52,942 nt of DNA from a virus (lineage: Duplodnaviria; Caudoviricetes): IMG/VR virus record IMGVR_UViG_3300033141_002397, positions 1 to 52,942 of that record; one strand, written 5' to 3'. The notes below the pieces were generated by a model that ran no database searches, was not told where the DNA came from, and saw nothing but the letters and a program-made list of their open reading frames with translations. A program made the position numbers and the translations under genes. Position 1 is the first letter of the stretch. Each line of letters begins with the position of its first letter. Of the stretch, positions 2,848-52,942 are shown piece after piece.

Positions 2848-5451
2848 CTGGCAACTGAATACGTAGACGCAAATATGAATTATGCCGCTGGGGCAGGAAA
2901 TAATAATTTCTTTTCTATTTCAGTGTTTTATAATAATTCATGGTTAAATATTACCGATAATATTTCTACATGGACGCTTGAAGACCCGTTAAATGAAGTC
3001 GGGACTTTAACTATTGAATTATATGATGTTGGTTCTACTGAACGCAATTATATCACTAACAATTCTTTAATAATGGTTTTGTCAGGTGTTAATCTACCTA
3101 TTTGGATTGGACGCATAAACTCCACAGAATACTCTACCGACGAGTTCGCAAAAATCGTTGCTTACGATATAATGATAGACCTCAATAAATATAAAGTAGT
3201 ATACCCCAGCTCAATAGATTCCGATACGAGCGATTATTATCGTGTAAAATACATTAATACATCTAATACAACTGTATTTAATGAATTATGTTCAACTAAC
3301 GAAGACGGCTCGTCACCATGGCTTTTACAACCAGATACAAATGATACATATGGCGCAATAACAATCAGATTAGAAAATGTATCGCGATTAGATGCTTTAA
3401 TGGCATTACGAAAATCGCTCAGCTATGATTTATACTCAAGCATCAATACCAGTGATTTAACGCCACGGATTAATTTTGATGACCATAAAGGAAGCAATAC
3501 GTCAGTTGCTACATACGAAATTGATGGCACAGACCAAAATATTGATATTGTTAGTATCGAAGAAGACGAAAACGAATATGCGTCTGGGGTTGTTTTTTTA
3601 GGTTATGGTAACGGCAAAACGCAATTAAAAACATCTTTTTATGCTATCCATGAAACATACTCGACGCTAAACGAATCTTTATTCAGTTATCATGATATTG
3701 TTGCCGCGAATCATATTCCTGCATCTGGAGACGATTGGGTTGAAATCGAAGGCGATTATACTGATTATTTTGCAAATGGCGATACGTTTGTAATTGAAAA
3801 CTCAACAGCAAATAACGGCACATGGACAGTTAGTTCAGTTTCATATCAAACTGCAACACAACGAACACGTATATTCGTAACGGGTAGTTTAGTAGATAGT
3901 ACTGGCAACGGCAATCTATTCGAAGACCAAATTGATTTAGTTGATGCATCCTCATTTACTTCATCCGGTTATGTGCTTATTGGCGAAGAGTTAATACAAT
4001 ATACGGGCATATCTTCCAATACCTTAACGGGTTGTACCCGCGGTGTTGATTTGACCAGTCCAGATAACGTTACAACTGTCGCATCAACACACGGAAAAGG
4101 TGCGTTGGTTTTTCAATACGATAATACAACAAGTAACTCAATAAAAACTAACCTTGGCGATTTAGAATATACTGCCAATAGCCCAATAGGTACAAACGGT
4201 TTTAAAGAAGATGTTATATTAGATCAATCTATATCGAATAACGATGTTGCTGAACAAAGGGCGTCTGCGTTTTTATTAGATCGAATGAATAAATATTATA
4301 CTATTGAGTTTTCAGTTAGCGAACCTATAACTGCTATGAAAACTGGTAACGGCGCCAGCACACCACTTGAAACTGGTGACGTTATAACTTTAACAGATAC
4401 ATCTTGCGGAATAACTTCAACAGAATATAGAATCCAGAAAATAGTGTGTGGTAGTGATGATAATGGTGAATATTGTAATATTACTGCTTCAAATAAACCG
4501 TCTGGGTTAGTATCTGCTATCGCTGAAGAAGTGAAACAGTTCAAAATGAGCACTTCATTTGACCAGGGTTATGTTAATATAATCGAACTTAACGAACGCG
4601 ATAATACTAAAGGTTTAAATTATCCGCTTAAATTAGAATGGTATTATCCAAATAAAACTGTTGAAGTTGGTAAGACATTTATTTCATTTTATTTATCTGA
4701 TTTTAGAGCTTATTCAAAAGCCACATCTACATCAGAAACACCTACAACAACATCAACAGATTTTGCAGATAACACTGCGGTTGCAACATCAGGGGCATTA
4801 AAACCATCAACTACTACAAGTGCAGAATTGGTTGGTAAAGTTAAAATGCCTCAAATTGGTAGCAGTTCATCTACTTTCGAAACAGTAAGAGCACATTCAT
4901 CATATCAAAATCTTAGTGGCGCATCTATTACGGGTTATTTTGTTTATGAGAATCTAACTAACGCATGGACACCAGCAACAAGATCTTCATCATCAATAAC
5001 TATTGCAGATGATACATCTGAGCCAGTTAATACTGATTTACCCGCTACTTATAGTGGTGAAATAACTAAAATGAATGATTATATAACTGTTAAATTTGTT
5101 GTAACATCTGGAACACCATCTGAGTTTGATGTGGTAACTACAACAATTGTTGGATTTAATAAAACAAGCCATTCTCATACAGTTACTGCACATTCTCATG
5201 ATATAGACGCAGATATATACGAAGTTTCAGCACCAGCAAGCCCATCAATAAAAATAAAAATTGATGGAACTGATCAAACAACTGCATTGGGCGGGCCATG
5301 GTCTTCCGATGTAAGTGATTTAGATATAACTACTTATATCTCTGGGTCTGGATCACATAATATTATATTATATGACAGTAACACTGAACTCATTAGAATA
5401 CGTGCAGTATTATATTCTGAGTTCTTTATAAGGAGTGGAAAAAATGTCTGA
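2848..5451 (+). CDS. Minor tail / tail-tip (hub-like) protein; start CTG 2848 or ATG 2875
   Basis: 858+ aa; tail-tip-like N-terminus (IWIGRI, GYGNG, GDVITLTD..YRIQKI); position in the tail module. Confidence 0.75.
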   Translation: MATEYVDANMNYAAGAGNNNFFSISVFYNNSWLNITDNISTWTLEDPLNEVGTLTIELYDVGSTERNYITNNSLIMVLSGVNLPIWIGRINSTEYSTDEFAKIVAYDIMIDLNKYKVVYPSSIDSDTSDYYRVKYINTSNTTVFNELCSTNEDGSSPWLLQPDTNDTYGAITIRLENVSRLDALMALRKSLSYDLYSSINTSDLTPRINFDDHKGSNTSVATYEIDGTDQNIDIVSIEEDENEYASGVVFLGYGNGKTQLKTSFYAIHETYSTLNESLFSYHDIVAANHIPASGDDWVEIEGDYTDYFANGDTFVIENSTANNGTWTVSSVSYQTATQRTRIFVTGSLVDSTGNGNLFEDQIDLVDASSFTSSGYVLIGEELIQYTGISSNTLTGCTRGVDLTSPDNVTTVASTHGKGALVFQYDNTTSNSIKTNLGDLEYTANSPIGTNGFKEDVILDQSISNNDVAEQRASAFLLDRMNKYYTIEFSVSEPITAMKTGNGASTPLETGDVITLTDTSCGITSTEYRIQKIVCGSDDNGEYCNITASNKPSGLVSAIAEEVKQFKMSTSFDQGYVNIIELNERDNTKGLNYPLKLEWYYPNKTVEVGKTFISFYLSDFRAYSKATSTSETPTTTSTDFADNTAVATSGALKPSTTTSAELVGKVKMPQIGSSSSTFETVRAHSSYQNLSGASITGYFVYENLTNAWTPATRSSSSITIADDTSEPVNTDLPATYSGEITKMNDYITVKFVVTSGTPSEFDVVTTTIVGFNKTSHSHTVTAHSHDIDADIYEVSAPASPSIKIKIDGTDQTTALGGPWSSDVSDLDITTYISGSGSHNIILYDSNTELIRIRAVLYSEFFIRSGKNV

Positions 5452-6776: not shown

Positions 6777-7421
6777 ATGGCAAGTTTAATTGTGGGAAAA
6801 CCACCAACAACTGCTGGTGAGATAGTAGATATATCTATTATCGATAGCAAATATGAATCAGCAGATAAACAGCTCTACGTTGAGGTATCCAACGTATATA
6901 ATGACGGAGGTTTTAAAGTCTGGTATTCAATCAAATATAAGCGAATCGATGGTCAAATTACAGATGTTATTTCACCGTTTTGTTTTGCAGGTAAGTTTCT
7001 AACCCGGCTTGGTAAAATTGGAGTCAAAGCTAAAGATACCGAAAGCCTTATTGGTACTAAACTCGAATGGCTTAACGAAGAAGTCAAATTTGGTAAAGAC
7101 ATAACTGTAACTAAATGGATGCCACAGAAGATCCATAAAAGCACAGAACAGTCTTCAGAAACAGCAACAACTTCAACAGAAGCACCTAAATCTGTTAATC
7201 CAGAGCCTATCCTTGAAACCAATGTTGATTTAGAAAACATAATCAAAACGGTTCTTAGTGAACATAACGGTACGTTGGGGTTGACTGAATTGCTTGAAAC
7301 TATTCCATTGAAAGATTCGTCATATAAACCTAAAGATATTATGAGAACTACAACTGCGATGGTTTCATCTGGTGTACTTGTAGAAGACGTGAAAGCAGAT
7401 ACTATTTCGCTTCCACTTTAA
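6777..7421 (+). CDS. Putative ssDNA-binding protein (beta/OB-like N-domain, linker, winged-helix C-domain)
   Basis: GGAGGT SD; beta-rich N-half, Thr/Ser/Glu linker, wHTH-like C-end; first gene of the replication operon. Confidence 0.5.
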   Translation: MASLIVGKPPTTAGEIVDISIIDSKYESADKQLYVEVSNVYNDGGFKVWYSIKYKRIDGQITDVISPFCFAGKFLTRLGKIGVKAKDTESLIGTKLEWLNEEVKFGKDITVTKWMPQKIHKSTEQSSETATTSTEAPKSVNPEPILETNVDLENIIKTVLSEHNGTLGLTELLETIPLKDSSYKPKDIMRTTTAMVSSGVLVEDVKADTISLPL

Positions 7422-7458
7422 TTTATTTTTTTATTATTAGTTTTTTGAGGTGATTATT

Positions 7459-8331
7459 TTGAGTAGATATGATTTTCAAAATAGAGTTCCATACATCAAA
7501 TTCGATGATTTAAATTCATTGAATCGCGCAATACAAAATAGAATAAGAAGCAAACCTCAGCATATGGCGAGGTTCAGAACTGGTATAAAAGATTTCAGAA
7601 AAGTCTTTGGTGATTTACCTAAAGGTCTTACACTCTTTTCAGGCGGTAGTGGTACGGGTAAATCTAATATGGCTAAATTTATTGCCAAATCAGTCGCTGA
7701 ACAAGGTTTCAAAGTTATTTATGCTTATAGCGAATCAGGAACTGATCGAGTTTTTAACGAGAATATAATAAACATGGATTATACGTCTTGGTTACCTAAC
7801 TGGCAAAAGGCAATAAACCAAGTATTCTTTGCAGTAAGCCAATTAGATGCAGATTTGTTAGTTATTGATAGCATTACTAACTTTCTTAGCTCAACCCGTA
7901 AAGCAGTAAGTGAAGCTGAAATTAGAGGTGGTATTTTTGATATTAGTAAAATATGTCAATACCAAATACCTGTTATAGCGACCTCTCAGATTCGAGGATC
8001 AGGAAACTTTTCACAATGTGCTGGTGGTCGAGGTGTAGATCATGCCCCAGACTTATTTTTATGGTTCGATAAAGTCCGAATAACAACCAAGTTCTTAGCT
8101 GACGATTATGACGCACGGGTTGGCGAAATCGTATGGATCATTCATGCCGAAAAAGACCGACAAGGCTTATCTGATCAAGGTTCAATGTATAAAGTAGTCT
8201 ACGAAAACGATAACAAAGAACTAAAATTCTACGATTTACAAGAACTCCGCATAGCGCGATATAAAGCCAAAATAGAACAAGAACAAAAGAACGAACTGAA
8301 GTTCACCGATTCAAAAGCCACAAAACACTGA
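7459..8331 (+). CDS. RecA-superfamily ATPase (RadB/KaiC/DnaB-like)
   Basis: Walker A GGSGTGKS, Walker B LLVIDS, ATSQ, HAPD and EKDRQG motifs; GAGGTGA SD then TTG 7459. Confidence 0.85.
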   Translation: MSRYDFQNRVPYIKFDDLNSLNRAIQNRIRSKPQHMARFRTGIKDFRKVFGDLPKGLTLFSGGSGTGKSNMAKFIAKSVAEQGFKVIYAYSESGTDRVFNENIINMDYTSWLPNWQKAINQVFFAVSQLDADLLVIDSITNFLSSTRKAVSEAEIRGGIFDISKICQYQIPVIATSQIRGSGNFSQCAGGRGVDHAPDLFLWFDKVRITTKFLADDYDARVGEIVWIIHAEKDRQGLSDQGSMYKVVYENDNKELKFYDLQELRIARYKAKIEQEQKNELKFTDSKATKH

Positions 8332-8338
8332 AACATAG

Positions 8339-9712
8339 ATGATATTAATGGCATTACTTAACTTTAGACAATTAGAAGAAATCAACCCAATCGAAGAAGC
8401 TAAATGGTTAGGAAAACAAGTATACAAACATATTGGTGCTTTAGCGTTCCCCGAGCTTGAAATGTCGTTCCTTTTAGGTGCAATGAAACGCCAAACTTAC
8501 ACAGGTAATAAATATATGCGCCTGCGTAAGCATTTGCTTTTATACTGGGAACGAGGCTTTTTTAAAACGTCCAGTATCCATTTTTTTCTTGACGAATGTT
8601 GTGGTGCAGTAGATATTGGTAAACGCCACGATTACCCAAATTCTGCAACTTATATGAAAGTTAGCAAAGATTTCTCAATGGCTAAGCTAAGAGGTTCTTG
8701 TGAAGGCTCTAAAATCCAGTTACCTCAAATCCAACTACCTAACTTTTTGGTATCTGGCGAGCTTATGACATTCCTCGGCTCTGAATCAACCCAATTTAGG
8801 ACTATGGTAAACTATCTTAACGAAGTATTAGAAGAAGGCGTTGGCCGAGTATCGTTAGTAAAAATGGCTAATGTCAAACTCAGTGACGATGATTTAGTCC
8901 GCATGGAAAACCGTAACATTTTTTTTGATGAAGAAGAGGGGCTTATGCTTTATCCAGTTGCCAATACACTTATTGCTGGTTCGAGGATACTCGATGAGCG
9001 ATTATTCCAAACTTTAGAAATGTCGGGGTTCTTAGACCGATTCGGAGTAATCACTTGGAACTATACGAAAAACGAATTCAATGAACAATGGCGACACGTA
9101 CCAAGAACTAAAGTATATGTTGATGAGCTTATGCTTTTCAATACCAAGCTCTGGAATACCCACATACAAAAAATCCAAGAGCCTCCAGTCGATTATGTCA
9201 ATAGAATCAAAGATAGCCTCTCAAAATACTACCAAGAGCTCGAAGAAGAGTCTCAAGTGCCTTACCACTTGATCAAATCCGCACGAGATAACCTAAACAT
9301 AAACCATCTCATGACCGCACATGCGATCGCCAACATATTCACACGACGCGGCATCGGTAAAGTATACAAAGAATTGAAATACGAACGCGAAGATTTTATA
9401 TTCGCAATGAATCATATGGAACAATATGCACGCAATCGCTTTTTATGTATTGCAGAATCGCCCCGTTACAAAAAGAGTGTAGATATGTGGCGGACGTATA
9501 CAGAATTACGTGACCAGTTTGGCGCGGATGCTATAGTCCCTATCAAAGACGCTATAAACTCTGTAAAAGAAATCCATGGCGGTATTAGTGAACGACAAGC
9601 ACGCCGTATAATCAATGAATTTAACGTTAAAACGTGGCTAATTAAAAAACCAAGCCCGAGTATAGACGGAAAAAAAGGACGTCGTTCTAATCAGATTATA
9701 TTTATGCGGTGA
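8339..9712 (+). CDS. MCM-like AAA+ ATPase with degenerate Walker motifs and C-terminal winged helix
   Basis: RKHLLLYWERGFFKT (Walker A position), LVSGE (Walker B), NEVLEEG..VSLVK (presensor-1), FLDRF (Arg finger), SARD (sensor 2). Confidence 0.6.
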   Translation: MILMALLNFRQLEEINPIEEAKWLGKQVYKHIGALAFPELEMSFLLGAMKRQTYTGNKYMRLRKHLLLYWERGFFKTSSIHFFLDECCGAVDIGKRHDYPNSATYMKVSKDFSMAKLRGSCEGSKIQLPQIQLPNFLVSGELMTFLGSESTQFRTMVNYLNEVLEEGVGRVSLVKMANVKLSDDDLVRMENRNIFFDEEEGLMLYPVANTLIAGSRILDERLFQTLEMSGFLDRFGVITWNYTKNEFNEQWRHVPRTKVYVDELMLFNTKLWNTHIQKIQEPPVDYVNRIKDSLSKYYQELEEESQVPYHLIKSARDNLNINHLMTAHAIANIFTRRGIGKVYKELKYEREDFIFAMNHMEQYARNRFLCIAESPRYKKSVDMWRTYTELRDQFGADAIVPIKDAINSVKEIHGGISERQARRIINEFNVKTWLIKKPSPSIDGKKGRRSNQIIFMR

Positions 9713-10334: not shown

Positions 10335-10357
10335 TTAAAAAAAATAAGGTGATTAAA

Positions 10358-10894
10358 ATGGAAGAAAGACTCAAAAACTTAACCAAAGAAGAATTAATTG
10401 AAAAAATTAAGTCAGAAACTAATCTAAGTGATGCTGATTTGCGTGGTGTAGATTTGAGCCATGCTAATTTAAATGGTGTTGATTTGAACCGTGCTAATTT
10501 GAGCAGTGCTGATTTGCGTAATGCTAATTTTTCGGATTCTAAAAATGTTTTTAATCCAACAAAATTTATTGAAAATAATTTCAAATTCTGTAAAAAAGGA
10601 TTAATTGTATATAAAGCGTTTGGAAATACTCCAAACAATTCTATGAAGTGGGGGACTCCAAAACCGAATAAAATTATCAAAGAAGTTGTTAACCCGTGTG
10701 TAACGACTGAATGTGGTTCTGGAATCAATGTAGCTACTTTAGGATGGATTAAGCATAACTTATATGGTAATTTTGAAATTTGGGAATGTGTAATTCCTTA
10801 CAAACACTTATTAGGTGTTGTAGTGCCCTATAACTCTGACGGAAAAATTAGATGTAATTATCTTAAATTAATAAAAAAAATAGAGGTGAACTAA
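10358..10894 (+). CDS. Pentapeptide-repeat protein
   Basis: ADLRG/VDLSH/ANLNG/ANLSS repeats, then ECGSGI and DGKIRC C-terminal motifs. Confidence 0.85.
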   Translation: MEERLKNLTKEELIEKIKSETNLSDADLRGVDLSHANLNGVDLNRANLSSADLRNANFSDSKNVFNPTKFIENNFKFCKKGLIVYKAFGNTPNNSMKWGTPKPNKIIKEVVNPCVTTECGSGINVATLGWIKHNLYGNFEIWECVIPYKHLLGVVVPYNSDGKIRCNYLKLIKKIEVN

Positions 10895-10895
10895 C

Positions 10896-11759
10896 ATGCA
10901 AGAAGAAAAAATAAAATGTCCAAAACAAAGTAAACTCAATCCGTGGGTTTCTATTTCTAAATGCAAAACATGTTTAGAATGCATTTCATTAGAGGAATAT
11001 AATAAACTAACACAAGACGAATCGAAACGTGACGAAAACCAAAAATATGGTAAACATAACGCATTTGGCACATCTGCATTAACAAAATGTTTACGACAAC
11101 AATATTTTAGACGAAAATTAGGTAGCCGATTAGACTGGGAAACAAAAAAGAAATTCTTTATTGGAACTGAAGCCCATAACTTTTTACAAGATTTGATAGG
11201 CTCGCAAGTCAATATTGAAGACCGATTTTGTAACAAATTAGAAGACAATCGTGATTGGGCCAGCACGGGTTTTATTGATATTAATAATAAAGGTAACGAA
11301 ATCATAGAATTAAAATGTTTAGCTACTACACGTTTCGTTCCGCAAACGCCTTATGATTCACATATCGAGCAAGTCAAAGTATACTGTATTAACGAAGGCG
11401 TAACTAAAGCAAAGATTATCTATTTTAAAGTCTTTGATTTAGAGTTTGATCAAAAAGAATTGGCTGAATTTAAAGCAGATATGATTAAACAAGGCGATAT
11501 ATTATATTCTTCATTGAAAAATAATGAAATCCCGCTTGCAACTGCATGCAAGGTTTGGGAATGTAATTATTGCCAATATCGGCAAGAATGTGAGAACATT
11601 GATTCTTATAGTGCAGATTTAGAACATAAAGAAAACGAAGCAAAACTAACACTCAAAGCCAAAAAAAACAAAAAGAAAAAACAAGCAATCGCCAACACTG
11701 AAAAAATGAAAGCTAAAAGTGAAGAAATAAAAAATAAAATAAAAACTGGAGGTAATTAA
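10896..11759 (+). CDS. cas4: Cas4-like PD-(D/E)xK exonuclease with Fe-S cysteines
   Basis: KCLRQQYF, GTEAH, GFID, IIELK, QVKVY and C-terminal ECNYC..REC. Confidence 0.8.
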   Translation: MQEEKIKCPKQSKLNPWVSISKCKTCLECISLEEYNKLTQDESKRDENQKYGKHNAFGTSALTKCLRQQYFRRKLGSRLDWETKKKFFIGTEAHNFLQDLIGSQVNIEDRFCNKLEDNRDWASTGFIDINNKGNEIIELKCLATTRFVPQTPYDSHIEQVKVYCINEGVTKAKIIYFKVFDLEFDQKELAEFKADMIKQGDILYSSLKNNEIPLATACKVWECNYCQYRQECENIDSYSADLEHKENEAKLTLKAKKNKKKKQAIANTEKMKAKSEEIKNKIKTGGN

Positions 11760-14349: not shown

Positions 14350-14877
14350 ATGAAACCTAAAGTATTTGTTACATCTGATACGCACTTTAATCATAAAGAA
14401 ATAATTAACTTAGCTAATAGACCTTTTACTGACGTAGATGACATGAACGATACATTAATATACAAATGGAACAAAACAGTATCAACTAACGATATTGTAT
14501 TCCATTTAGGTGATATTGCATTCAATAAAAAGCGAATCAAAGCAGATTATTGGCTCAATCAACTAAACGGCAACATTATCAGTATTAAAGGTAACCACGA
14601 AAAACATAATAAATGCTCAAGTATTCAATACTTACAAAGCTGTATAATTAAATTTAGAAGTATAGATTTCTTTTTAGTGCATAATCCTTTGAACGTGCCT
14701 AAATATTGGGCAAATAAATGGGTTTTACACGGTCACAGTCATAATAACACACCATTTTTAGATGTTGAATCTAAACGAATAAACGTATCAGTAGAGAATA
14801 CAAACTATAAACCGATCATGCTAAAAACGATTGTAAAATACATACACAAAAAAGAGAATATTAAAAAGGTGAATTAA
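14350..14877 (+). CDS. Calcineurin-like metallophosphoesterase
   Basis: SDTHFNH, LGD, GNHE, HGHSH motifs. Confidence 0.9.
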   Translation: MKPKVFVTSDTHFNHKEIINLANRPFTDVDDMNDTLIYKWNKTVSTNDIVFHLGDIAFNKKRIKADYWLNQLNGNIISIKGNHEKHNKCSSIQYLQSCIIKFRSIDFFLVHNPLNVPKYWANKWVLHGHSHNNTPFLDVESKRINVSVENTNYKPIMLKTIVKYIHKKENIKKVN

Positions 14878-14878
14878 A

Positions 14879-15013
14879 TTGGGAATTTGTTTATACTGTA
14901 ACTGGTTTGTTAAATGTGCTGGAAATAGCTTGTGTAGACTACACAAAACAACAATAGACTACTATACGCATAGTTGTAATGACTATAAACATAAAGGTGA
15001 TTCAGATGGTTAA
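14879..15013 (+). CDS. 44-aa Cys/His microprotein
   Basis: AGGTGA SD, TTG start, CLYC...CRLH...C; not in ORF track. Confidence 0.55.
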   Translation: MGICLYCNWFVKCAGNSLCRLHKTTIDYYTHSCNDYKHKGDSDG

Positions 15014-15971
15014 AAACAGCAACCAACCTGACTTATTTCATAAATACGGGCACACTGATAGTTTAAACAAAATGTCATCTATTTTAGATTGCAAATATGT
15101 AATCTGCACTGAAAAACTACACGGGACAAACATGCGATTCGGAATAATTAACGGCAAGTTCAGAATCGGCAGCCGAAACCAAGAATGGGACGCTAACACC
15201 ACAAACGACGGCTTTGGGTTCCTGAAATGGTCAGAGTCAAATATAGACAAAACCAAACTGCGTTATCTTTATAATTTATATGGCAATATTATCTTTTATG
15301 GCGAATTTATCGGTAAGGGCATTGGCAAAGGCATTACTTATTTTGCTGACGATACTAAAGATTATCGAGTCTTCGCAGTCCGAATAAACGGCAAATTCCA
15401 AGACTTTTATACTGTGATGCAATTAGCATCAATATTAGGATTGCGAACAGTCCCGTTACTGTTTGTTGGTCATCCTGAAATCGACAAATTCAAAGCTATT
15501 TACGACAGAATCTCAACAGAAGCAACCCAAAACGGCATCGAATTAACAAACAATATCTGCGAAGGAATCGTAATCTATTCTTACCCGCTTATCGAAAACA
15601 AACGCGGTGATCTCGTTATCGCTAAATTCAAAAACGACAAATTCTCCGAAAAGGCACACCAACCAAAACACCCGCGCAACTCTAATAAAAACACTACTTT
15701 GCCCGCTAAATGTAAAGAATTTATCGATTCTTTTATTACCGAGACCCGTTTAGAGCACGTAGTGTTGCCGATCCAGGCTGACCATTCCGAGCCGCTGTCC
15801 ATGTCTGAAATGGGCGAAATACTTAAAAATATGATGGCAGATATTGAACGTGAATGTGCAGATGAGCTTAACAGTTTGCAATTAAATAACCAGGACTACA
15901 AACAATTAAAACGGCATATAATAGCCAAAACTAAAACATTATATAAAGCATATCTCAATGCTAAACTATAA
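15006..15971 (+). CDS. rnl2: RNA ligase, Rnl2 family
   Basis: Motif I EKLHGTN, III YGEF, IIIa VFAV, IV EGIVI, V KFKNDKFSE; helical C-domain with ITETRL; AGGTGA SD. Confidence 0.85.
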   Translation: MVKNSNQPDLFHKYGHTDSLNKMSSILDCKYVICTEKLHGTNMRFGIINGKFRIGSRNQEWDANTTNDGFGFLKWSESNIDKTKLRYLYNLYGNIIFYGEFIGKGIGKGITYFADDTKDYRVFAVRINGKFQDFYTVMQLASILGLRTVPLLFVGHPEIDKFKAIYDRISTEATQNGIELTNNICEGIVIYSYPLIENKRGDLVIAKFKNDKFSEKAHQPKHPRNSNKNTTLPAKCKEFIDSFITETRLEHVVLPIQADHSEPLSMSEMGEILKNMMADIERECADELNSLQLNNQDYKQLKRHIIAKTKTLYKAYLNAKL

Positions 15972-18699: not shown

Positions 18700-18883
18700 G
18701 ATTTTCGAAGGCCCTTTTTTTAAAAAAACGTTTTCCCGTTACAAAAAATATGTTACTAACCAGTAACGTTATTTCAATATTTTACGCATAGTGATTTAAT
18801 AAAAAACACTGCAACGCATAAGAATTTAATCGCCGCTAATAGTTGATAATAGTTGCCGGTTGTTTCTTTGTTTATTACTGACC

Positions 18884-18913
18884 CGTGGTGTGAAACGCCG
18901 CGACCTTTTTTTT
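18884..18913 (+). terminator. GC-rich hairpin followed by a T-run
   Basis: CGTGGTGT-GAA-ACGCCGCG (G-U pairs), then ACC and T8. Confidence 0.4.
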
Positions 18914-18987
18914 AACAAAAAAATGCTTTAATAGGCAACCCAGGTTGCGATTTTTTGAAACTACTTTTTTTCACTTTTTTTGACTTT

Positions 18988-19067
18988 AAAGTGAATTTTT
19001 TTCACTTTTAGATCAGTTAATTTCATTTTTGAATTTCTAGGATCATAAAGTGAAATAATTTCACTTT
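18988..19067. promoter_or_regulatory. Twin palindromic operators AAAGTGAA-N5-TTCACTTT
   Basis: Copies at 18988-19008 and 19047-19067; half-site at 18970. Confidence 0.6.
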
Positions 19068-19367
19068 GCAGTAAAATTATGTTATTGATCAATAAATATT
19101 TATCGGTTTTTAGTGTTTTTTTGGGTTAATTCAATCACAAAAAAATTCAGGAAAAACAGAAAAAAAATGATGTATAAATATAAGTACAATATATTTTTCT
19201 AATATGTTCCTGCACATGCCAAAAACCAGGAAAAAAAATAGAAAACTATATAATATTACTTAGTATTACTATTACAATGTCCAAGAAATTTTTTTATTTG
19301 TTTTGCAGATTCTACGAGTCTTAAAACTAATAGAAAAAACAGTTTTGGAAATAAAAAGGTAATTAAA

Positions 19368-23097: not shown

Positions 23098-23295
23098 ATG
23101 AACATCGAAATAGACAATTTCGATGCGCGTATTCTTTCAGAACGCGCGTCGAATATGCGACTTCGACAAATTGCAGATGATATATTATCATTCTGCGATG
23201 AACGAGAAATTGACACGGTTCACTGCCGTGTCAGCCAAGTAATTTCGGTCAATTCGTCAGAATTGACTGAATTGGAGAAAATTCTCCAGTTTTAA
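23098..23295 (+). CDS. Hypothetical protein, leaderless
   Basis: ACAATAAGCTTATATAAATGTA promoter upstream; oligo-T after stop. Confidence 0.6.
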   Translation: MNIEIDNFDARILSERASNMRLRQIADDILSFCDEREIDTVHCRVSQVISVNSSELTELEKILQF

Positions 23296-24487
23296 TTTTT
23301 TTTATACTCATTCTACCCTCTCACCAAACCCTTTTTTTTTTGCTTTGTTTTCTGCTTAGCTTAAGCTTTTTTCTATGTTATTCACTATTTCCTGTTTGTT
23401 GTCAGTGAGATAAACAATTAAAAGTGTGTGGATCATAGTGTAGTATAAATTTCTATGTCCTATAATCCTGAGTTATGCTTGCCGTTCCAATATCTATATT
23501 CAACCTGACATTCGCCATGACCTGCAGAAATTATAATTATTGTGTTTTGCGTGTGCGCTGTTTACATTTATTACAATATTAGTATTAGAGTATTCTCTCT
23601 CTATAGAAGAAGAATTAACATATTATTCTTCTTTAGTAAGAATAACTAACTCTAATAGTTTATAATTGTTGTAACTATGTTCTACACTAATATTAATTAT
23701 GTTTTAATTTTTATATTATTAGTACTATTACTAGTACTAGTAATAGTACTAATATAGTACTCTTATATTACATCATTACCTCAATTATAGTATAACATAT
23801 AGTACTAATAGCTACAGCGCTATACTATAGCTAATAATATATTATACTCGTTATATACGTAGACTAAGCTAATACAATACACCATTTTCAGGCATATTAT
23901 ATATTATATATACTATACTCTGCATTATATACTATACTAATTAGTATTAGTACTAAGCTTTATTATATGCGCTGCATAGTTATATTATATCTATATACTA
24001 CTTAATCCATCATGGTCATATTATATATCGTATCCTATTTGTATATACTTATATCTCTTAGCTATTATTATCAGCTAATACTCTATTAGCCAGCATTATA
24101 ATGCGTATTACTTATCCTACTACGTTTAAGAACCATATACCTATACATACTATATTCTCTCTGCGTATATACTCTTATCCTCAATCCTTACCTTAGTATC
24201 ATTATTATGTAACTATCTCTATCTCATTATTATAACTATTTAATCTCTATAACTCTATGTATAACAATAATATACTGTATAACTCTTTATAATCCATTAT
24301 TAGCTTATTATTCCTGCCATATCAACTCAATAGCTTATAACATCCACGATTCACGAGTATTAGCCTGGAAAAAGCATCGGTCACATTCACACTCTAACCA
24401 TACATCGGACACACTAACCAACGGCACAAGCCAAATAATAAAGAAAAGAAGAACGCGCAACGCCATAATTACTATAGCGGTTATAAT
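23296..24487. other. Non-coding low-complexity TA-step-rich convergence zone
   Basis: No ORF in the track; + block ends on the left and - block ends on the right; AGTACT x6; several small palindromes. Confidence 0.8.
23717..23754. repeat. 38-bp perfect palindrome TATTAGTACTATTACTAGT|ACTAGTAATAGTACTAATA
   Basis: 19 consecutive complementary pairs around 23735/23736. Confidence 0.95.
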
Positions 24488-24751
24488 CTAAGCCAACCGA
24501 TTAATTTCAAATTGCACGGCATTAGCCACCAATCGAATAACGTCCACGTCACTATTTTTAATAAGCGTATAGGGCACTGCAACATCAAATTCCACTGCGC
24601 GCCCACCAACCATAATTTGCACTATTAACTCACACACATTCGGGCCATGGTTTATTCTTATTACTTGGCCGGCGTTGCCCGTAGTATTGATGGCGTGTTT
24701 CACGGCCGATTTAAGTTGTTGTTCTACCAGGTTTATAATCATGCGGGTCAC
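24488..24751 (-). CDS. Hypothetical protein
   Basis: ORF track, ATGA overlap; higher GC than its neighbours. Confidence 0.6.
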   Translation of the reverse strand: MTRMIINLVEQQLKSAVKHAINTTGNAGQVIRINHGPNVCELIVQIMVGGRAVEFDVAVPYTLIKNSDVDVIRLVANAVQFEINRLA

Positions 24752-24957
24752 TTAGTGCAGCCCAGTTCGTGGGCAATGGCAGCCAGGTCTTCTTCGGGCA
24801 TATTAACATTAGCGTGTAGCATAATGCTTTTGAATATAATAAACATGTCTTCGGGCGGTATTGTTACGTTACTGCCGTCGCAGTTAATTACTACTATACC
24901 ATATTCGCTTGGGTATGCGTAGGTTTGGCTTTCTTCATTAAATCTTATATATGACAT
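24748..24957 (-). CDS. Hypothetical protein
   Basis: GTGATTAAAAATG start cassette. Confidence 0.6.
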   Translation of the reverse strand: MSYIRFNEESQTYAYPSEYGIVVINCDGSNVTIPPEDMFIIFKSIMLHANVNMPEEDLAAIAHELGCTK

Positions 24958-25015
24958 TTTTAATCACTTAATTTCTATTGTTAGTTTAGTAATCTAATTT
25001 ATTACATATAATCTA

Positions 25016-27032: not shown

Positions 27033-27461
27033 TTTAATCACCTTTTATTATTTTCTAATAGTTTAAGTATATATTGTATTTCTAAGTCTATTTGAATAAT
27101 ATTAATAAGTTCTAAATAATATTTTAAATTAGTGCCAGTTAAATTATAATTACTTATCTTTAACATTAAAAACGTTATACTTTCAATCTTTAAATATGTT
27201 ACTATATAGTTTTTATAAATTAGTTTAATTATTAGTTTTTGTTTTAATTATATATAGTTTTGGTAAATATTATTGAAAATTATTAATGTTTATTAAATGG
27301 TGTAGCTTAAGTGATAGTAAATATGTTAAGTTGAGTGAGGTATATTGTTTAAGGTTAAGGTGTGTGTTTAAATACGTTATGAAAAATATATTTGATGGTG
27401 TTAAACATTAGTCTATATGCGCTAAAACATAACATAAAAAAATAGTTTGGTTAAGCTTAAC

Positions 27462-35402: not shown

Positions 35403-36893
35403 ATGCCAACAAAAAGATACATTAAAAAAACAGAAAAGAAAGGTAGAGTTTGGGATTTAGAAACTAATCCACTTCCTGATTATATTCTCAAAAATATGGC
35501 TGATCCTTATTTTAATATGCGTTGTTCGATTGATTTTAAGTTCTTTTATGATAACCAAGTAGGGCCTTTTCTGCCTATTAAAAAAGGTAGTATCTATCAT
35601 CCATTGAAACCGTTCCATATGGAATGGATTAATTTAATGCAAAAGCATACTAATCTGGCATTAGAAGCACCAAGAGGCCATGCTAAAACATCAGTTTTAG
35701 GTATAGGGTATCCATTATGGCGTATAAAACATATTGGTGGCTTCAAAGCGATGGGTATTGCATATGATTTAAAAGACCAAGCTTGGAAAAACTTAGCTGA
35801 ATTAGAACATGTAGTTGATCATTCACCGTATCTTTATAGCTTAAAACCAGAAGGTAAAAAACCTAAAGATTGGAATAAAGGTCATTTAAAGTTTGTTAAT
35901 GGCAGTATGTATTTTTGTAGGGCCTATACGCCAGGTGCAGTAGGTGTACATGTCGATTATTTGTTTTGTGATGAAATGCCTAAATATATTGACCATTCTA
36001 TATTTTTTAATGATATATTTCCTACGGCTCAAACCAATGCAGGGCATATTTGCGGAATAGGAACTCCCGCACATGAATTAGATTTATTAGCTAAATTATC
36101 TAAGAACCCAGAATTCTATTATAAACGATATACTGCTTTAGATGAAGAAACAAGAACAATTCCATTATGGCCTGAAAGATTTCCATTAGAAAAATTAAGG
36201 TCAATTGAACGCGGTATGCGTTTAGAACCAGGCGCATTTGAAAAACAATATATGTGTAATAGAGTTTCATCTGACGATTCTTATTATCCGTGGCATATTA
36301 TCAAAGACTGTTTTGATGAAGATGCACGATTTAGTGATACTATAATAGGTAATTGTTTTATTACATGTGATTTTGCATTATCTCAAGAAGGCGATTATTC
36401 AGTATTTATTATATGGGATTATTATGATGGTATATTATATTTACGAAAAGCATATCGGTTTAGAGGTATGCATGAAGATGAACAAATAAGATTATTAAAA
36501 GAAATTAATGAGATTTATAGACCTTCATTATTTTTCATTGATGAGACTAATATAGGACAAATGTTTAAGAATCGATTACTTCTTAACGGATTACCAATAG
36601 AAGGCACTCATTTTGAATCAAGACGAAGACATTCGATGCTTGTATCATTAAGACAAACATTTGTTTCAAAACGCATATCTATACCAATGAGCAAAGATGA
36701 TCCAGATTGTTTAAATTTTGCACAAAGATTAGTAAAAGAACTAATATCAGCTAAAAAACAAAAAACACAACATGGTTTAGATACTATTTATTTTAGAAGT
36801 GCACATGATGATTGTGGAATTACTACCGCAATGGGTGCATTTAAAGCCGCAACGTTACAACCATCTAATTTCTTTGCAGTAACATTAAAATAG
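35403..36893 (+). CDS. terL: Terminase large subunit
   Basis: Walker A APRGHAKT, Walker B LFCDE, IGTP, LWPE; nuclease CDFA..GDYS and HDD. Confidence 0.92.
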   Translation: MPTKRYIKKTEKKGRVWDLETNPLPDYILKNMADPYFNMRCSIDFKFFYDNQVGPFLPIKKGSIYHPLKPFHMEWINLMQKHTNLALEAPRGHAKTSVLGIGYPLWRIKHIGGFKAMGIAYDLKDQAWKNLAELEHVVDHSPYLYSLKPEGKKPKDWNKGHLKFVNGSMYFCRAYTPGAVGVHVDYLFCDEMPKYIDHSIFFNDIFPTAQTNAGHICGIGTPAHELDLLAKLSKNPEFYYKRYTALDEETRTIPLWPERFPLEKLRSIERGMRLEPGAFEKQYMCNRVSSDDSYYPWHIIKDCFDEDARFSDTIIGNCFITCDFALSQEGDYSVFIIWDYYDGILYLRKAYRFRGMHEDEQIRLLKEINEIYRPSLFFIDETNIGQMFKNRLLLNGLPIEGTHFESRRRHSMLVSLRQTFVSKRISIPMSKDDPDCLNFAQRLVKELISAKKQKTQHGLDTIYFRSAHDDCGITTAMGAFKAATLQPSNFFAVTLK

Positions 36894-40977: not shown

Positions 40978-41013
40978 TCGTTTAAAAAAACTAAAAAACT
41001 AAAAGTGATACAA

Positions 41014-42048
41014 ATGGGTATATATAAAGAATATGCGGATATGCTTTTGAGTAATTACCGCAAAAATCTAACAGTCGAGATGGCTGATAAAGACATAAGC
41101 AAAGTAATCAACGAAATGGCAACAGGAACTACTTCCAGCTCAGATTTCGGATCTAATCAGGCTGGCGAAAGATGGTTTGCAGAAGTTCTTTACAGAGCTG
41201 AAGAGCAGATGATGTTTGCACAGTTTGCAATGCGACAAGATGTAGAATCTGGTGAAAAAACTGTTTATTTGCCAATTGAAAATGCAGATCTGTCTTTCAC
41301 AGATACTACAACTGAAGGTTCAGAACGAACTATGACTAAAATTGATAATCTTACAATGGTGCCTTTGTCACCTTCGTTACATAGAGCTGGTGTTGAAATA
41401 TCAAAAACTGCAGTTGCTCAGTCAGCAGTTCCACTTGCTGCAATGGCAAGACGCAAACTCGCGTGGTGGGCTGCACAGATAGTAGATCAAGCAATCGTCA
41501 CAGCTATAGCTGGCGAATCTTCCCCCGCAGCAACACTTTACGGCGGAGATGCAACAGGCACAGATAGTCTCGAAGCTGGAGATATTTTTACTCCTGAACT
41601 TATTGCAGATGCAATTATCGAACTCGAAGAAGAAGGATGGCCTTCACCTGGTCAGAGCCCAGATTATCAATATGTTTTGTTTATTCATCCTAAACAGAAA
41701 AAACCACTTATCAAAGATGGCCAGTTCGTTAACGCAAGCGAATATGGTAACAACGAAGTCGTAATGAACGGTGAAATCGGTAAATATCTCGGTGTTAAAG
41801 TTGTAGTCTCAGTAAATTGTACTGCTGCAGCTGATTGGGGTGCAGGTAACAATCTTAAAGGACACAAATCGTTCCTTTGTATTTCGCCAATCGCATACGG
41901 ACTTGCTTATCACAAAGACATGCTTCCTTCACTGGTTACTCAATACAAGCCCGACGAAGCAACACATAAGATCATGATGGACGTTGGTTACGCCTCCGAT
42001 TCATTACAAGGCCAAGCTATTGTAATAATCAACACCTTGGATGCATAA
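41014..42048 (+). CDS. Major capsid protein (HK97 fold)
   Basis: Position; TEG, VLFIHPKQ, GEIGKYLGVKVV motifs. Confidence 0.9.
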   Translation: MGIYKEYADMLLSNYRKNLTVEMADKDISKVINEMATGTTSSSDFGSNQAGERWFAEVLYRAEEQMMFAQFAMRQDVESGEKTVYLPIENADLSFTDTTTEGSERTMTKIDNLTMVPLSPSLHRAGVEISKTAVAQSAVPLAAMARRKLAWWAAQIVDQAIVTAIAGESSPAATLYGGDATGTDSLEAGDIFTPELIADAIIELEEEGWPSPGQSPDYQYVLFIHPKQKKPLIKDGQFVNASEYGNNEVVMNGEIGKYLGVKVVVSVNCTAAADWGAGNNLKGHKSFLCISPIAYGLAYHKDMLPSLVTQYKPDEATHKIMMDVGYASDSLQGQAIVIINTLDA

Positions 42049-48781: not shown

Positions 48782-50137
48782 ATGGCAGCAGATAATGAGG
48801 TTCCATTAGCAACTCTTTCAATTAAATTTAAAGCCGAAGACGAAAAAAAACTGAAAAAAGCACTTAAAGATGTTGCTAAAGACATAGATTTAGTAAATAC
48901 AAAAATAACTAAATCCGGAACTCAAACAAATAAAACTGGTCGAAGAATTACGGGTGCGTTATTATCAACCATGTTTCTCGTACGTTCGTTATCTATGTCA
49001 TTTAGTCAAATAACCAATCGAGTAATTGAACAATCTGGTGCTTTAGAATATTTTACAACCGTTTTAGAAGATATAGTTAGACCAGTTTTACAACCGTTTA
49101 TCGATATGTTTTATGATTTAACTGACGAATTAGATAATTCAAATGAAGGTTTTAAATCTATAGTTGGCGTTATTTTTGTATTTGGTTGGGCATTAGCAAC
49201 TATTTTAGCCGTCCTTATTCCATTTTTATTAGTATTAATGGGTGTAGATGCAATAATGAAAAGTGCATTAGTTATGAAATTTTTTGCATTAGCATCTGGA
49301 GTTATTGCTACAATAGCCCCATTTTTGATACTACTTGCGGCATTCACAGCTTTTTGGTTATTATTAGAAGACTTTACTTGGGATAATTTTTTTTGGGGCT
49401 TAAAAGAACTCGCCAAACCTTTAACAGATCCAATTAATAAATTAGGAAAAAAAATACATAAAATATTAGAAATGACTTATTGGCGAGCTCGTAAATTTTT
49501 TAGACTCGTAGGCAGAGCGACTTCAACTTATTTATCTTCTGTGGGTTCTAATACTAAAACTAAACTAAAAAATATATATAAATTCTTAACAACAGTAGGT
49601 AAAAAAGTAATAAAAAAGGCTAAAACAATATTTAAAAAACTAAAAAAACTGATTAAATCATTTTTTAAAGACGTTAAAGAAAAAGGTTTAAAAGTAGCCT
49701 TACAAAATATATATAAAAAATTAAAAAGTTTCATAAAAAAACTAAAAACAAAAATAGAAAAATGGATAAAACCAATAACTGATTCTATTAAAAATATTTG
49801 GAAAAAGATATTCCCTTCAAAAAAAGAAGAAAAAGATTTAGATAAAGCCGATGTTAAAGAAAAAAAAGGTGGTATACGTAGCTTAATTTCAAATTTATTA
49901 TCTAAATTCGGCAAAGTATTGGGTGGAGAACAATACGGCGGGTTTATACCTATCACTGGTTTATATAAATTACATGCTGGAGAACGTGTAGTTAACAATC
50001 ATTATTATAACACACAACGAATAGATATGAATAATAATGTAGCATCACATATGGATATTTCAAAAATAGCTTATGAATTAGAACGTTATTGGGGTTCGAG
50101 ATTCAGAGGTTTAGGTCGTACTGGAGAGTGGCGATAA
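48782..50137 (+). CDS. Tape measure protein (short)
   Basis: Helical, TM segments, GGFIPITGLYKLHAGERV C-terminal motif. Confidence 0.85.
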   Translation: MAADNEVPLATLSIKFKAEDEKKLKKALKDVAKDIDLVNTKITKSGTQTNKTGRRITGALLSTMFLVRSLSMSFSQITNRVIEQSGALEYFTTVLEDIVRPVLQPFIDMFYDLTDELDNSNEGFKSIVGVIFVFGWALATILAVLIPFLLVLMGVDAIMKSALVMKFFALASGVIATIAPFLILLAAFTAFWLLLEDFTWDNFFWGLKELAKPLTDPINKLGKKIHKILEMTYWRARKFFRLVGRATSTYLSSVGSNTKTKLKNIYKFLTTVGKKVIKKAKTIFKKLKKLIKSFFKDVKEKGLKVALQNIYKKLKSFIKKLKTKIEKWIKPITDSIKNIWKKIFPSKKEEKDLDKADVKEKKGGIRSLISNLLSKFGKVLGGEQYGGFIPITGLYKLHAGERVVNNHYYNTQRIDMNNNVASHMDISKIAYELERYWGSRFRGLGRTGEWR

Positions 50138-51779: not shown

Positions 51780-52942
51780 ATGACAAGCTATGATAACTCA
51801 AACGATATAGCAAATTCCGGTACAGTTATAGCTACTGGAGATAAAATATTATATACTCATGTATTGACACCAGTACAGAAAATTCAAGGTGAAGATGCAC
51901 TTGGGATTAATCCTGCACTTTTGTCTATTAATGATACTATAGTTATTACTAATTCACGAGTGCTTCAAGATGTTACTGCGGATACGTCTATAATTACATC
52001 TGGCACATTTGCAGATGCACGTATAAGCGAAACTTCAGTAACTCAACATCAAACTGCATTAAGTATCGCAACAACTCAACTTAAGGGTGACATGCCTGAT
52101 GCACGAATAGTTGTTACGAATGTTACTCAGCACGTTGCGTCAATTGATCATGATTCGTTACTTAATTTTTCTGCGGACGAACATTTTACTCAAGCCAATA
52201 TAACTACGGTTGGAATTATAAGCACTGGGACTTGGCAAGCGGATGTCATTGACCAAACTTATTTAGATACTGATTTAGTTTTAAAAGATGGTAGTCGAGC
52301 TTTTACTGGCACCGTTGCAGGTGTGACACCAACTTCAGGTAGCCATTTAGCGACCAAATCTTATGTTGATTCTATTGCGCAAGGTTTAGAATGGCAAGAT
52401 TCTGTATTAGACAGATATGATCCTAATGGCGGATTGCCTGGCACTCCATCAACTGGCGATAGATATATTTCAACTGCGACTGCTAATGGTTGGACTGATG
52501 AATATATTTATGAATATAATGGATCTTCGTGGGACGAGACTGTTCCAAACGAAGGCTATGCGTGTTGGGTTGAAGACGAAGACGTTTTATATGTTTATAA
52601 TGGCTCAAATAATTGGGTTAAATTTGGGGCTACAATTGATCACGATAATTTAATTAATGTTGGCACGAATACACATACGCAAATAGATTCACATATTTCA
52701 GGCACTGGCGCAGATCATTCATATATAGACCAAGATGTGACATCTGGTTCAGCACCTACATTTACCGCAGATAATTTCAGTGACGGTGGAACTAATGCAA
52801 TAATTACAACTACTCAAGAGACTAATTTTGAATCGGCTTATACACATGCGACTGGAAACGGTTCTGATCATAGCGATGTTGCTTTAAATACAACACACAG
52901 AACAAGTAATGGCTCAGATCATAGTTTTATAGATCAAGATGT
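51780..52942 (+). CDS. Tail fibre 5' part (continues through the junction), with DUF2793-like domain
   Basis: GGTGA SD; open frame to the window end; ATKSYVD..GLEWQDSV..PSTGDRYI...W...PNEG..CWVEDE; missed by the ORF track. Confidence 0.85.
   Translation, partial: MTSYDNSNDIANSGTVIATGDKILYTHVLTPVQKIQGEDALGINPALLSINDTIVITNSRVLQDVTADTSIITSGTFADARISETSVTQHQTALSIATTQLKGDMPDARIVVTNVTQHVASIDHDSLLNFSADEHFTQANITTVGIISTGTWQADVIDQTYLDTDLVLKDGSRAFTGTVAGVTPTSGSHLATKSYVDSIAQGLEWQDSVLDRYDPNGGLPGTPSTGDRYISTATANGWTDEYIYEYNGSSWDETVPNEGYACWVEDEDVLYVYNGSNNWVKFGATIDHDNLINVGTNTHTQIDSHISGTGADHSYIDQDVTSGSAPTFTADNFSDGGTNAIITTTQETNFESAYTHATGNGSDHSDVALNTTHRTSNGSDHSFIDQD
52829..52942. repeat. Terminal direct repeat, copy 2
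   Basis: Exact match to 1-114. Confidence 0.95.

Follow-up and report, generated by a model that had tools for sequence, protein, structure and literature searches.

Why should a stretch of viral DNA that is three-quarters A+T, in a genome saturated with A-tracts, contain not one AAA along its plus strand? The question is raised by an 838-bp non-coding zone of IMG/VR record IMGVR_UViG_3300033141_002397, a virus of the Caudoviricetes (Duplodnaviria) whose whole genome is held on one contig of 52,942 bases. This contig, at its full length, is the window that was analyzed, and its AAA density is 58 per kb. The zone lies within a 1.2-kb gap where the rightward and leftward gene blocks of the virus converge (Table 1). 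The reading tentatively preferred here, which is possible but short of probable, is that the zone constitutes a DNA element that is flexible, easily opened, and quiet in transcription, and that carries a protein-binding or cruciform site, with replication or resolution as its probable purpose.

The absence of AAA was first noticed in a preliminary description of the sequence, made from its letters alone, and the coordinates given there are exactly the bases between one AAA at 23528 and the next at 24369. This gap of 841 bp compares to a runner-up of 254 bp in a genome containing 3062 AAA in total, and every other 838-bp window possesses at least 10 of them (median 41), in keeping with the abundance originally described. 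Mononucleotide shuffles of the zone gave a mean of 30.4 AAA (minimum 12) and dinucleotide-preserving shuffles a mean of 7.5 (minimum 1); zero was reached in none of 5000 shuffles of either kind, so the depletion holds against shuffled controls for a zone that was chosen post hoc as the genome's extreme. When the zone is divided, its left part (23531-23713, 183 bp) has no AAA where 4.2 are expected, with zero occurring in 1 of 1000 shuffles, and its right part (23772-24368, 597 bp) has none where 3.7 are expected, with zero occurring in 20 of 1000. Other intergenic regions carry 1.0-11.5 AAA and 2.5-12.5 TTT per 100 bp, the exception being the 119-bp right flank of the zone (24369-24487), which has no TTT. 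Since the remaining intergenic DNA is rich in A and T runs, the zone does not represent the neutral composition of this genome.

The missing AAA is the tip of a wider, mostly strand-symmetric pattern at the dinucleotide level. The zone, composed of 347 T, 278 A, 140 C, and 73 G, is built of TA steps as originally noted (188 versus 89 at the genome rate), and is depleted of AA (46 versus 120) and TTT (18 versus 36). Departures from base composition are likewise seen in its core (23720-24368), where AA occurs 30 times versus 73 expected, TT 54 versus 103, AAA 0 versus 24.6, and TTT 7 versus 40.8. Because AA, TT, and TTT are depleted together with AAA, the signal is mostly strand-symmetric, as expected of a property of the duplex. 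The strand-specific remainder, 0 AAA versus 7.6 and 18 TTT versus 23.3 under a first-order Markov model, is real but modest. Purines and pyrimidines alternate at 0.61-0.63 of the steps, compared to 0.50 genome-wide, and the ratio TA/(AA+TT) is 2.14, the highest value outside 23.4-24.5 kb being 0.77. Hence, it is AT-richness without A-tracts that is unique to the zone within the genome. TpA steps are described as the most flexible DNA and A-tracts as the most rigid (PMC4466236).

The zone had also been called easily melted, and nearest-neighbor stacking energies after a published table place it second among the least stable duplexes of the genome at scales of 200-800 bp. This part of the claim stands, but the property is not unique, as the region at 27.0-27.4 kb scores equal or lower. 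That intergenic region (27042-27461, 81% A+T) is the genome's least stable duplex at the same scales and, unlike the zone, is rich in A and T runs. The excess of C over G reported for the right part of the zone was recovered as well, with C minus G at +5 to +19 per 100 bp between 23750 and 24300. The G-C and A-T skews of the zone as a whole, calculated from its base counts (-0.31 and -0.11), are those of the adjacent leftward gene block, and cumulative G-C skew reaches its maximum at 23277, just to the left of the zone.

What the preliminary description passed over is the main landmark of the zone, a 38-bp perfect palindrome assembled from TAGTACTA boxes. It is the longest palindrome of the genome, having an arm of 19 as opposed to 11 in the runner-up. 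The box is itself a palindromic 8-mer with five genomic copies, all of which are in the zone, versus 0.33 expected from 300 dinucleotide shuffles of the zone. Spaced at 12 bp, the three leftmost copies build the 38-bp palindrome together with complementary linkers. As a DNA hairpin it is predicted to fold at -12.5/-12.8 kcal/mol (z -3.9/-3.6). Palindromes with an arm of at least 7 number 13 in the zone, versus 3.5 +/- 2.4 in 200 shuffles, and Tandem Repeats Finder (TRF) identifies arrays with a period of 6/12 at 23714-23771. Another repeated word, the hexamer GCGCTG/CAGCGC with three occurrences in the zone, was judged unconvincing. The possibility of a miniature inverted-repeat transposable element or other insertion element was rejected, as the borders of the zone have no terminal inverted repeats and no copies occur elsewhere in the genome.

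Certain short palindromes are scarce throughout this genome. CTAG has been nearly purged, with four sites (19037, 23731, 23737, and 26482) versus 93 expected. Two of the four lie in the 38-bp palindrome, the other two share CTAGGAT, and all four are outside ORFs (open reading frames) of at least 50 amino acids (aa). CCGG (13 versus 39), GGCC (26 versus 51), and GTAC (55 versus 100 outside the zone) are scarce as well, and the zone holds six of the 61 GTAC sites and six of the 10 AGTACT sites. These word counts suggest that the genome has been under strong restriction pressure from which the zone may be exempt or protected.

Table 1. Coordinates of the AAA-free zone, the features within and around it, and three other genes of the virus (positions in the 52,942-base window)
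Feature	Position	Strand	Basis or remark
AAA-free, TpA-rich, non-coding zone, 75% A+T	23531..24368	none
Left sub-zone, 11 TTT	23531..23713		plus-strand T4 (23545), T4 (23702), T5 (23708)
Imperfect hairpin GAAGAAGAAT...ATTCTTCTT	~23605-23636		in left sub-zone
Perfect palindrome, 38 bp, arm 19, spacer 0	23717..23754		inverted repeat search
Five TAGTACTA boxes (236 bp)	23720..23955		at 23720, 23732, 23744, 23800, 23948
Right sub-zone, TA-rich, 7 TTT in all	23772..24368		plus strand C>G and T>A; skew as in minus block
Last gene of plus block, 65 aa, no known family	23098..23295	+	ORF list
Predicted terminator cluster for rightward transcription	23269..23372	+	hairpin (23269-23292), then T-rich tail
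Minus-strand T5 (24373-24369) and T-rich run with T4 (24447-24444)	24369..24455	-	plus-strand A runs of at least 4
Last gene of minus block, 87 aa, no known family	24488..24751	-	locally G+C-richer island
Large terminase	35403-36893
Major capsid protein	41005-42048
Tape-measure protein	48782-50137

How might such an element work? A dimeric DNA-binding protein, of viral or host origin, could sit on the TAGTACTA boxes, and/or the palindrome could extrude as a cruciform under negative supercoiling, helped by its easily opened, TA-rich flanks. Local opening or cutting of the DNA would be nucleated there, so that replication could be initiated, or its recombination-dependent form started or resolved. 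Among the enzymes of the virus are a RecA/KaiC-like ATPase, a Cas4-like nuclease, an Mre11-like exonuclease, and, encoded beside the terminase gene, a RuvC-like resolvase. Archaeal TATA boxes (TTTAWATA-like consensus) and oligo-T terminators both need runs of T or A, and an AT-rich element free of such runs would conceivably stay transcriptionally quiet, above all in the leftward direction, while oligo-T runs would insulate it on both sides. The sequence itself shows the composition and uniqueness of the zone, its palindrome and box array, its position, and its lack of coding and of any known RNA; from these we infer protein binding, cruciform extrusion, a role in replication or resolution, and the avoidance of promoter and terminator words under selection. 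If the zone proves to be a working element, its unique box array, its palindrome, and its distinctive composition rule would together provide a handle on how replication starts or is resolved in a tailed virus whose hosts are uncultivated, probably DPANN-type archaea, a subject on which, to our knowledge, almost nothing is known.

Several known systems resemble the zone in part. As with AT-rich origins and control regions, including archaeal oriC with its unwinding element and origin-recognition boxes, the zone is AT-rich, non-coding, and located at a switch in gene strand and skew; it likewise ranks among the least stable duplex of its genome and has a cluster of a repeated palindromic word. 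Unlike such origins, it has no recognizable initiator gene nearby and its junction is convergent rather than divergent. The Sulfolobus virus STSV1 reportedly has a 1.4-kb AT-rich intergenic region as its putative origin. We know of no origin for which complete exclusion of A-tracts is a feature. A second parallel is the "C-type" extrusion of ColE1-type palindromes, in which AT-rich flanks promote the formation of cruciforms. The 38-bp palindrome of the zone is similarly surrounded by weakly stacked, TA-rich DNA over several hundred bp; unlike the C-type cruciforms, its arms are themselves AT-rich and its hairpin amounts to just ~ -12.5 kcal/mol, and extrusion is a prediction.

A third likeness is to the DNA preferred by certain nucleoid proteins. 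TpA-reading proteins such as MvaT and H-NS are the examples, and MvaT prefers multiple adjacent TpA steps, with interspersed G/C tolerated and rigid A-tracts absent (PMC4466236), which is the type of sequence found in the zone. These two proteins are bacterial, however, and no such gene was found in the virus. The comparison can be extended to telRL, the protelomerase site of phage N15. Like the zone's palindrome, telRL is a long perfect palindrome in non-coding DNA at the middle of the map of a tailed virus, although it is longer than 38 bp. Unlike telRL, the zone is accompanied by no protelomerase gene that could be found, its palindrome is built of boxes phased at 12 bp, and there is no sign of hairpin ends. 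Finally, the A+T-rich control region of insect mitochondria, with its [TA(A)]n-like stretches, is also non-coding, TA-repeat-like, stem-loop-bearing, and positioned at a strand switch, but its long poly-T stretches are absent from the zone and the two systems are unrelated. As to MvaT and H-NS, we know of no archaeal counterpart.

A number of points weigh against a replication or resolution element. Support comes from one sequence, with a putative function; the virus has no close relative (best terminase 33-35% identical), and the zone is not conserved. A (TAGTAC)n tandem array may have yielded the palindrome as a by-product. A pure duplex property does not account for the remaining asymmetry between AAA and TTT, the intergenic DNA at 27.0-27.4 kb melts as easily as the zone does, and known unwinding elements need not lack A-tracts. 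Moreover, the junction is convergent and its skew simply follows gene direction, and a maximum of cumulative skew is, by bacterial convention, on the terminus side. Scans with PHROGs, Pfam, and NCBIfam (47, 34+7, and 25 ORFs) identified no initiator such as Orc1/Cdc6, Rep, or similar, and no partition protein, integrase, or protelomerase; many ORFs belong to no family at all, so an unrecognized initiator is still conceivable. An equally good candidate for an origin is the 668-bp intergenic region at 18700-19367, inside the plus block. One of the four CTAG sites is located in this region, as are three G+C-rich hairpins with T runs behind them and several inverted repeats of TTTCACTTT/AAAGTGAAA, and by its sequence the region could be a candidate origin, operator array, or small-RNA locus.

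The preliminary description had seen in the zone the mark of selection on physical properties of DNA or RNA. As the zone is unlike every other intergenic region of the genome, some constraint on such properties is needed, or else a recent origin. The claim survives in part, and the competing explanation, that the zone is an unselected spacer, is somewhat unlikely but deserves close attention. By this account, the zone would be dispensable DNA between convergent terminators, comparable to the b region of lambda. It would have arisen through slippage of short units (such as TAGTAC, TATAC, and TATTA) or through recent capture from elsewhere, and would owe its lack of AAA to those seed units and not to maintenance. 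Weak short-period TRF arrays do occur in the zone (periods 6/12, 7, 9, 5, and 8), but their scores are low (31-61) and they cover ~130 of the 838 bp. Distinct 6-mers number 487, as opposed to 531 +/- 10 in dinucleotide shuffles, and the diversity of 5- and 6-mers is low (z ~ -3) even when the TAGTAC array is left out, which would favor an origin by slippage. However, the repeats are short, with identities of 71-88%, and beyond the array the diversity of 8-mers is at a normal level, which argues against a fresh expansion and in favor of maintenance. An AAA would be created by 137 of the 2514 possible single substitutions in the zone, so that, by our arithmetic, ~18 random changes (~2% divergence) are expected to yield one; after divergence of the extent seen among the repeats, substitutions of which ~5% create an AAA should have made several. 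This argument for maintenance is suggestive only, as the weak repeats could be chance similarities in a biased sequence.

Additional evidence on the spacer is similarly divided. In its favor, no relative that was examined shows conservation of the zone, only 7.5 AAA are expected given its low AA count, and the genome, having several other sizeable intergenic gaps, is not extremely compact. Against it, all other intergenic DNA of the genome drifts toward richness in A and T runs, and the match between the skews of the zone and those of the adjacent gene block suggests long residence. A perfect palindrome of 38 bp would also be unlikely to persist unused. Should the zone prove to be a mere spacer, it would be a curiosity of a single genome.

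Could the zone instead be read as RNA? The preliminary description argued that a strand without TTT offers no oligo-U terminator and so fits a long non-coding RNA on the minus strand, and a non-coding RNA on either strand can be framed in two versions: a leftward one, unterminated for want of U-runs, or a rightward one that starts from a plus-strand TTATATTA box and continues, as antisense RNA, into the minus block at its 3' end. The zone is non-coding. As originally stated, it has no ORF of 60 aa or more, and stops are dense in all six frames, the longest open run being 52 codons. Coding under recoded TAA or TAG was also considered and rejected (genes elsewhere end in TAA 49 times, TGA 15 times, and TAG four times). 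The plus strand of the zone has no TGA, yet merely 2.7 are expected. The strand asymmetry in AAA and TTT already described would suit an RNA, as would a minus strand that has G>C and A>T like the transcribed genes of the minus block and that is without a T run of at least 4 between 24369 and 23423. For the rightward version, TATA-like TTATATTA words occur on the plus strand at 23711, 23763, and 23980, and no plus-strand T run of at least 4 is found between 23889 and 24554.

Other signals argue against either RNA. No TATA-like word is present on the minus strand of the zone, in a search that used patterns drawn from only ~10 upstream regions of the genome's genes. Moreover, a leftward polymerase would meet minus-strand T4 and T5 runs immediately before it reached the zone, and these are likely the termination signals of the minus block. 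On the opposite side, plus-strand runs of T4, T8, T10, T4, and T6 begin at 23290, 23296, 23332, 23348, and 23367. The zone thus appears fenced by predicted termination signals on both sides, with nothing recognizable inside to start a leftward RNA. Avoiding termination, furthermore, requires the absence of long T runs only and not of every TTT. Both strands fold better than their shuffles (z of -3.1 and -2.9 from 20 shuffles per strand), but the near-equality of the two values indicates that the structure signal stems from palindromes in the DNA rather than from an RNA of one strand. Rfam gave no match at its gathering score in the whole genome, and at E <= 10 gave chance-level hairpin hits alone (E 0.07-8) in 23200-24600. 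The zone is also of low complexity and without homologs for covariation. The case for a long minus-strand RNA is weakened by the T runs that precede the zone and the lack of a minus-strand box, and with no Rfam family and folds that are alike on both strands, that proposal was not upheld; an RNA in either version is unlikely, although a rightward antisense RNA is conceivable. The TATA-like words, just three on one strand and none on the other, also led to rejection of the idea that the zone is a promoter cluster or a sink for the archaeal TATA-binding protein.

A bolder interpretation, and a decidedly doubtful one, is that the zone is a deliberately "transcription-proof" AT-rich element of an archaeal virus or, in a related form, the sole A-tract-free patch for chromatin wrapping. 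An element that needs AT-richness, flexibility, and meltability could conceivably stay silent and readable only by excluding AAA and TTT. In the related form, the single patch free of A-tracts in a genome saturated with them could be the only place where chromatin proteins of the host, such as histones, are able to wrap the viral DNA. TpA steps in the zone have no helical periodicity of 10-11 bp, only a 2-3 bp structure, so a phasing signal of the histone type is unsupported. If true, exclusion of AAA and TTT would be a signature of function at the DNA level for which other archaeal replicons could be searched.

The zone could also be a start site for packaging or a genome end, as the preliminary description had allowed, or a site of telomere resolution, to be cut by terminase or by a hairpin-forming resolvase. 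A long perfect palindrome does resemble protelomerase targets and concatemer junctions, and a RuvC-like resolvase is encoded beside the terminase gene. The record has an exact direct terminal repeat of 114 bp (1-114 and 52829-52942) whose ends miss any obvious non-coding boundary; the assembly is circular or terminally redundant and the record starts at an arbitrary position, which hides the true ends of the genome. Set against this, the terminase gene is 11 kb from the zone, library scans found neither a protelomerase nor a tyrosine recombinase, and the nearest terminase matches among named phages include T4-like phages, which package by headful without a fixed site. Such a function is very unlikely. 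Finally, an assembly artefact, in which a low-complexity stretch was misjoined or collapsed, is highly improbable: TA-rich DNA of low complexity is hard to assemble and the assembly is metagenome-style with a 114-bp end overlap, but the zone has no word longer than 15 bases in common with other parts of the genome, the only matches being two overlapping pairs of 14-mers, the zone is neither a simple repeat nor a repeat that would tangle an assembly graph, and skew and gene layout shift smoothly across it.

Are comparable zones found in related viruses, as the preliminary description proposed to ask? The virus has no close relative, its best non-self terminase match being 33-35% identical (33% in a search of 5.8 billion proteins), and searches of viral contigs with the terminase and with a neighboring 166-aa protein found no close relative either. 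No DNA similarity to 23300-24500 was detected in 50,697 phage records. The sample of relatives comprised 114 loci totaling 1.52 Mb, some of them overlapping. Six related contigs were covered in full, and none of those six has a comparable zone. The longest gap free of AAA or TTT at an A+T content of at least 0.70 was 355 bp in the 114 loci, and a 300-bp window with a TA/(AA+TT) ratio above 1.1 occurred in five of 80 loci, with a maximum of 1.56. The phased TAGTACTA pattern, with two mismatches allowed, occurred in none of five related records. An 18-nt core of the palindrome matched three loci in viral contigs, which were judged to be chance matches in ordinary DNA of unrelated contigs. The expectation is thus borne out only to the extent that two weaker TA-rich zones exist in distant relatives. 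These, which belong to the five loci with a high ratio, are non-coding stretches of 1.5-1.7 kb at divergent gene junctions, namely 2903-4619 of locus L008 (same contig as G005), where there are two exact copies of the palindromic word TATAACATTGTTATA and a third copy with one mismatch, and 7277-8759 of locus L022, which has dispersed imperfect repeats only; the likeness is a loose analogy, not homology. A limited literature search found no published description of an AT-rich zone free of A runs in an archaeal virus.

Palindrome avoidance of an extreme kind also occurs among the relatives G002, G003, G005, and G006 (loci L098-L111), each with its own pattern. For example, GATC is absent from three related contigs versus 88-137 expected, and G006 has no CTAG (67 expected), no GTAC (35 expected), and one GATC (107 expected).

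Turning to the genes around the zone, the rightward block runs from 34721, over the ends of the record, up to 23295, and the leftward block from 34680 down to 24488. The zone therefore lies, as first described, where the two blocks converge, between the last gene of each (23098-23295 and 24488-24751). Neighboring ORFs span 65-166 aa, and the proteins flanking the zone belong to no family in Pfam, NCBIfam, or PHROG. The 65-aa protein of the plus block is preceded by a TTATATAA box ~29 nt upstream of its ATG. It has no Pfam match at E up to 5, and its AlphaFold model, which is helical with a mean pLDDT of 77.8, has no Foldseek match in the PDB at E <= 0.001; an Atlas search returned unnamed clusters only. 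Adjoining the zone on its right, A+T drops to 0.56-0.61 per 100 bp at 24369-24960, compared to 0.69 for the genome. The ORFs of this segment, two small ones in leftward orientation (87 and 69 aa) and a rightward one of 91 aa that overlaps them, belong to no known family, and the segment may be an acquired cassette.

The remaining gene content is that of a tailed virus, with a portal-like protein in addition to the terminase, capsid, and tape-measure genes of Table 1, and at least two DNA methyltransferases are also encoded. A tRNA scan of the genome found no genes. An archaeal host is likely, although not proven. In its favor, a 58.7-kb contig that was binned with a "Candidatus Nanoarchaeia" metagenome-assembled genome is the nearest relative by terminase and capsid (33% and 38% identity) in species genomes, an "Altiarchaeum virus" gives the best match to the capsid protein among phage records that are isolated or named, and the ATPase is similar to archaeal KaiC/RadB proteins. 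In addition, a box resembling TTTAAATA or TTATATAA lies 27-33 nt ahead of the start codon in ~10 genes, and T runs follow many genes. Against it, there are weak terminase matches (~23% identity) to Bacteroides phages.

Two further gene pairs of the virus deserve mention. At 14350-15971, a phosphoesterase (phrog_547) adjoins an RNA ligase (phrog_548), a pair that presumably recalls the tRNA-repair modules with which phages counter anticodon nucleases. Finally, at 10349-11759, a pentapeptide-repeat protein (PF00805) is encoded immediately upstream of the Cas4-like nuclease (phrog_1706), and its repeats are visible in the DNA as 15/30-bp tandem repeats at 10444-10530.

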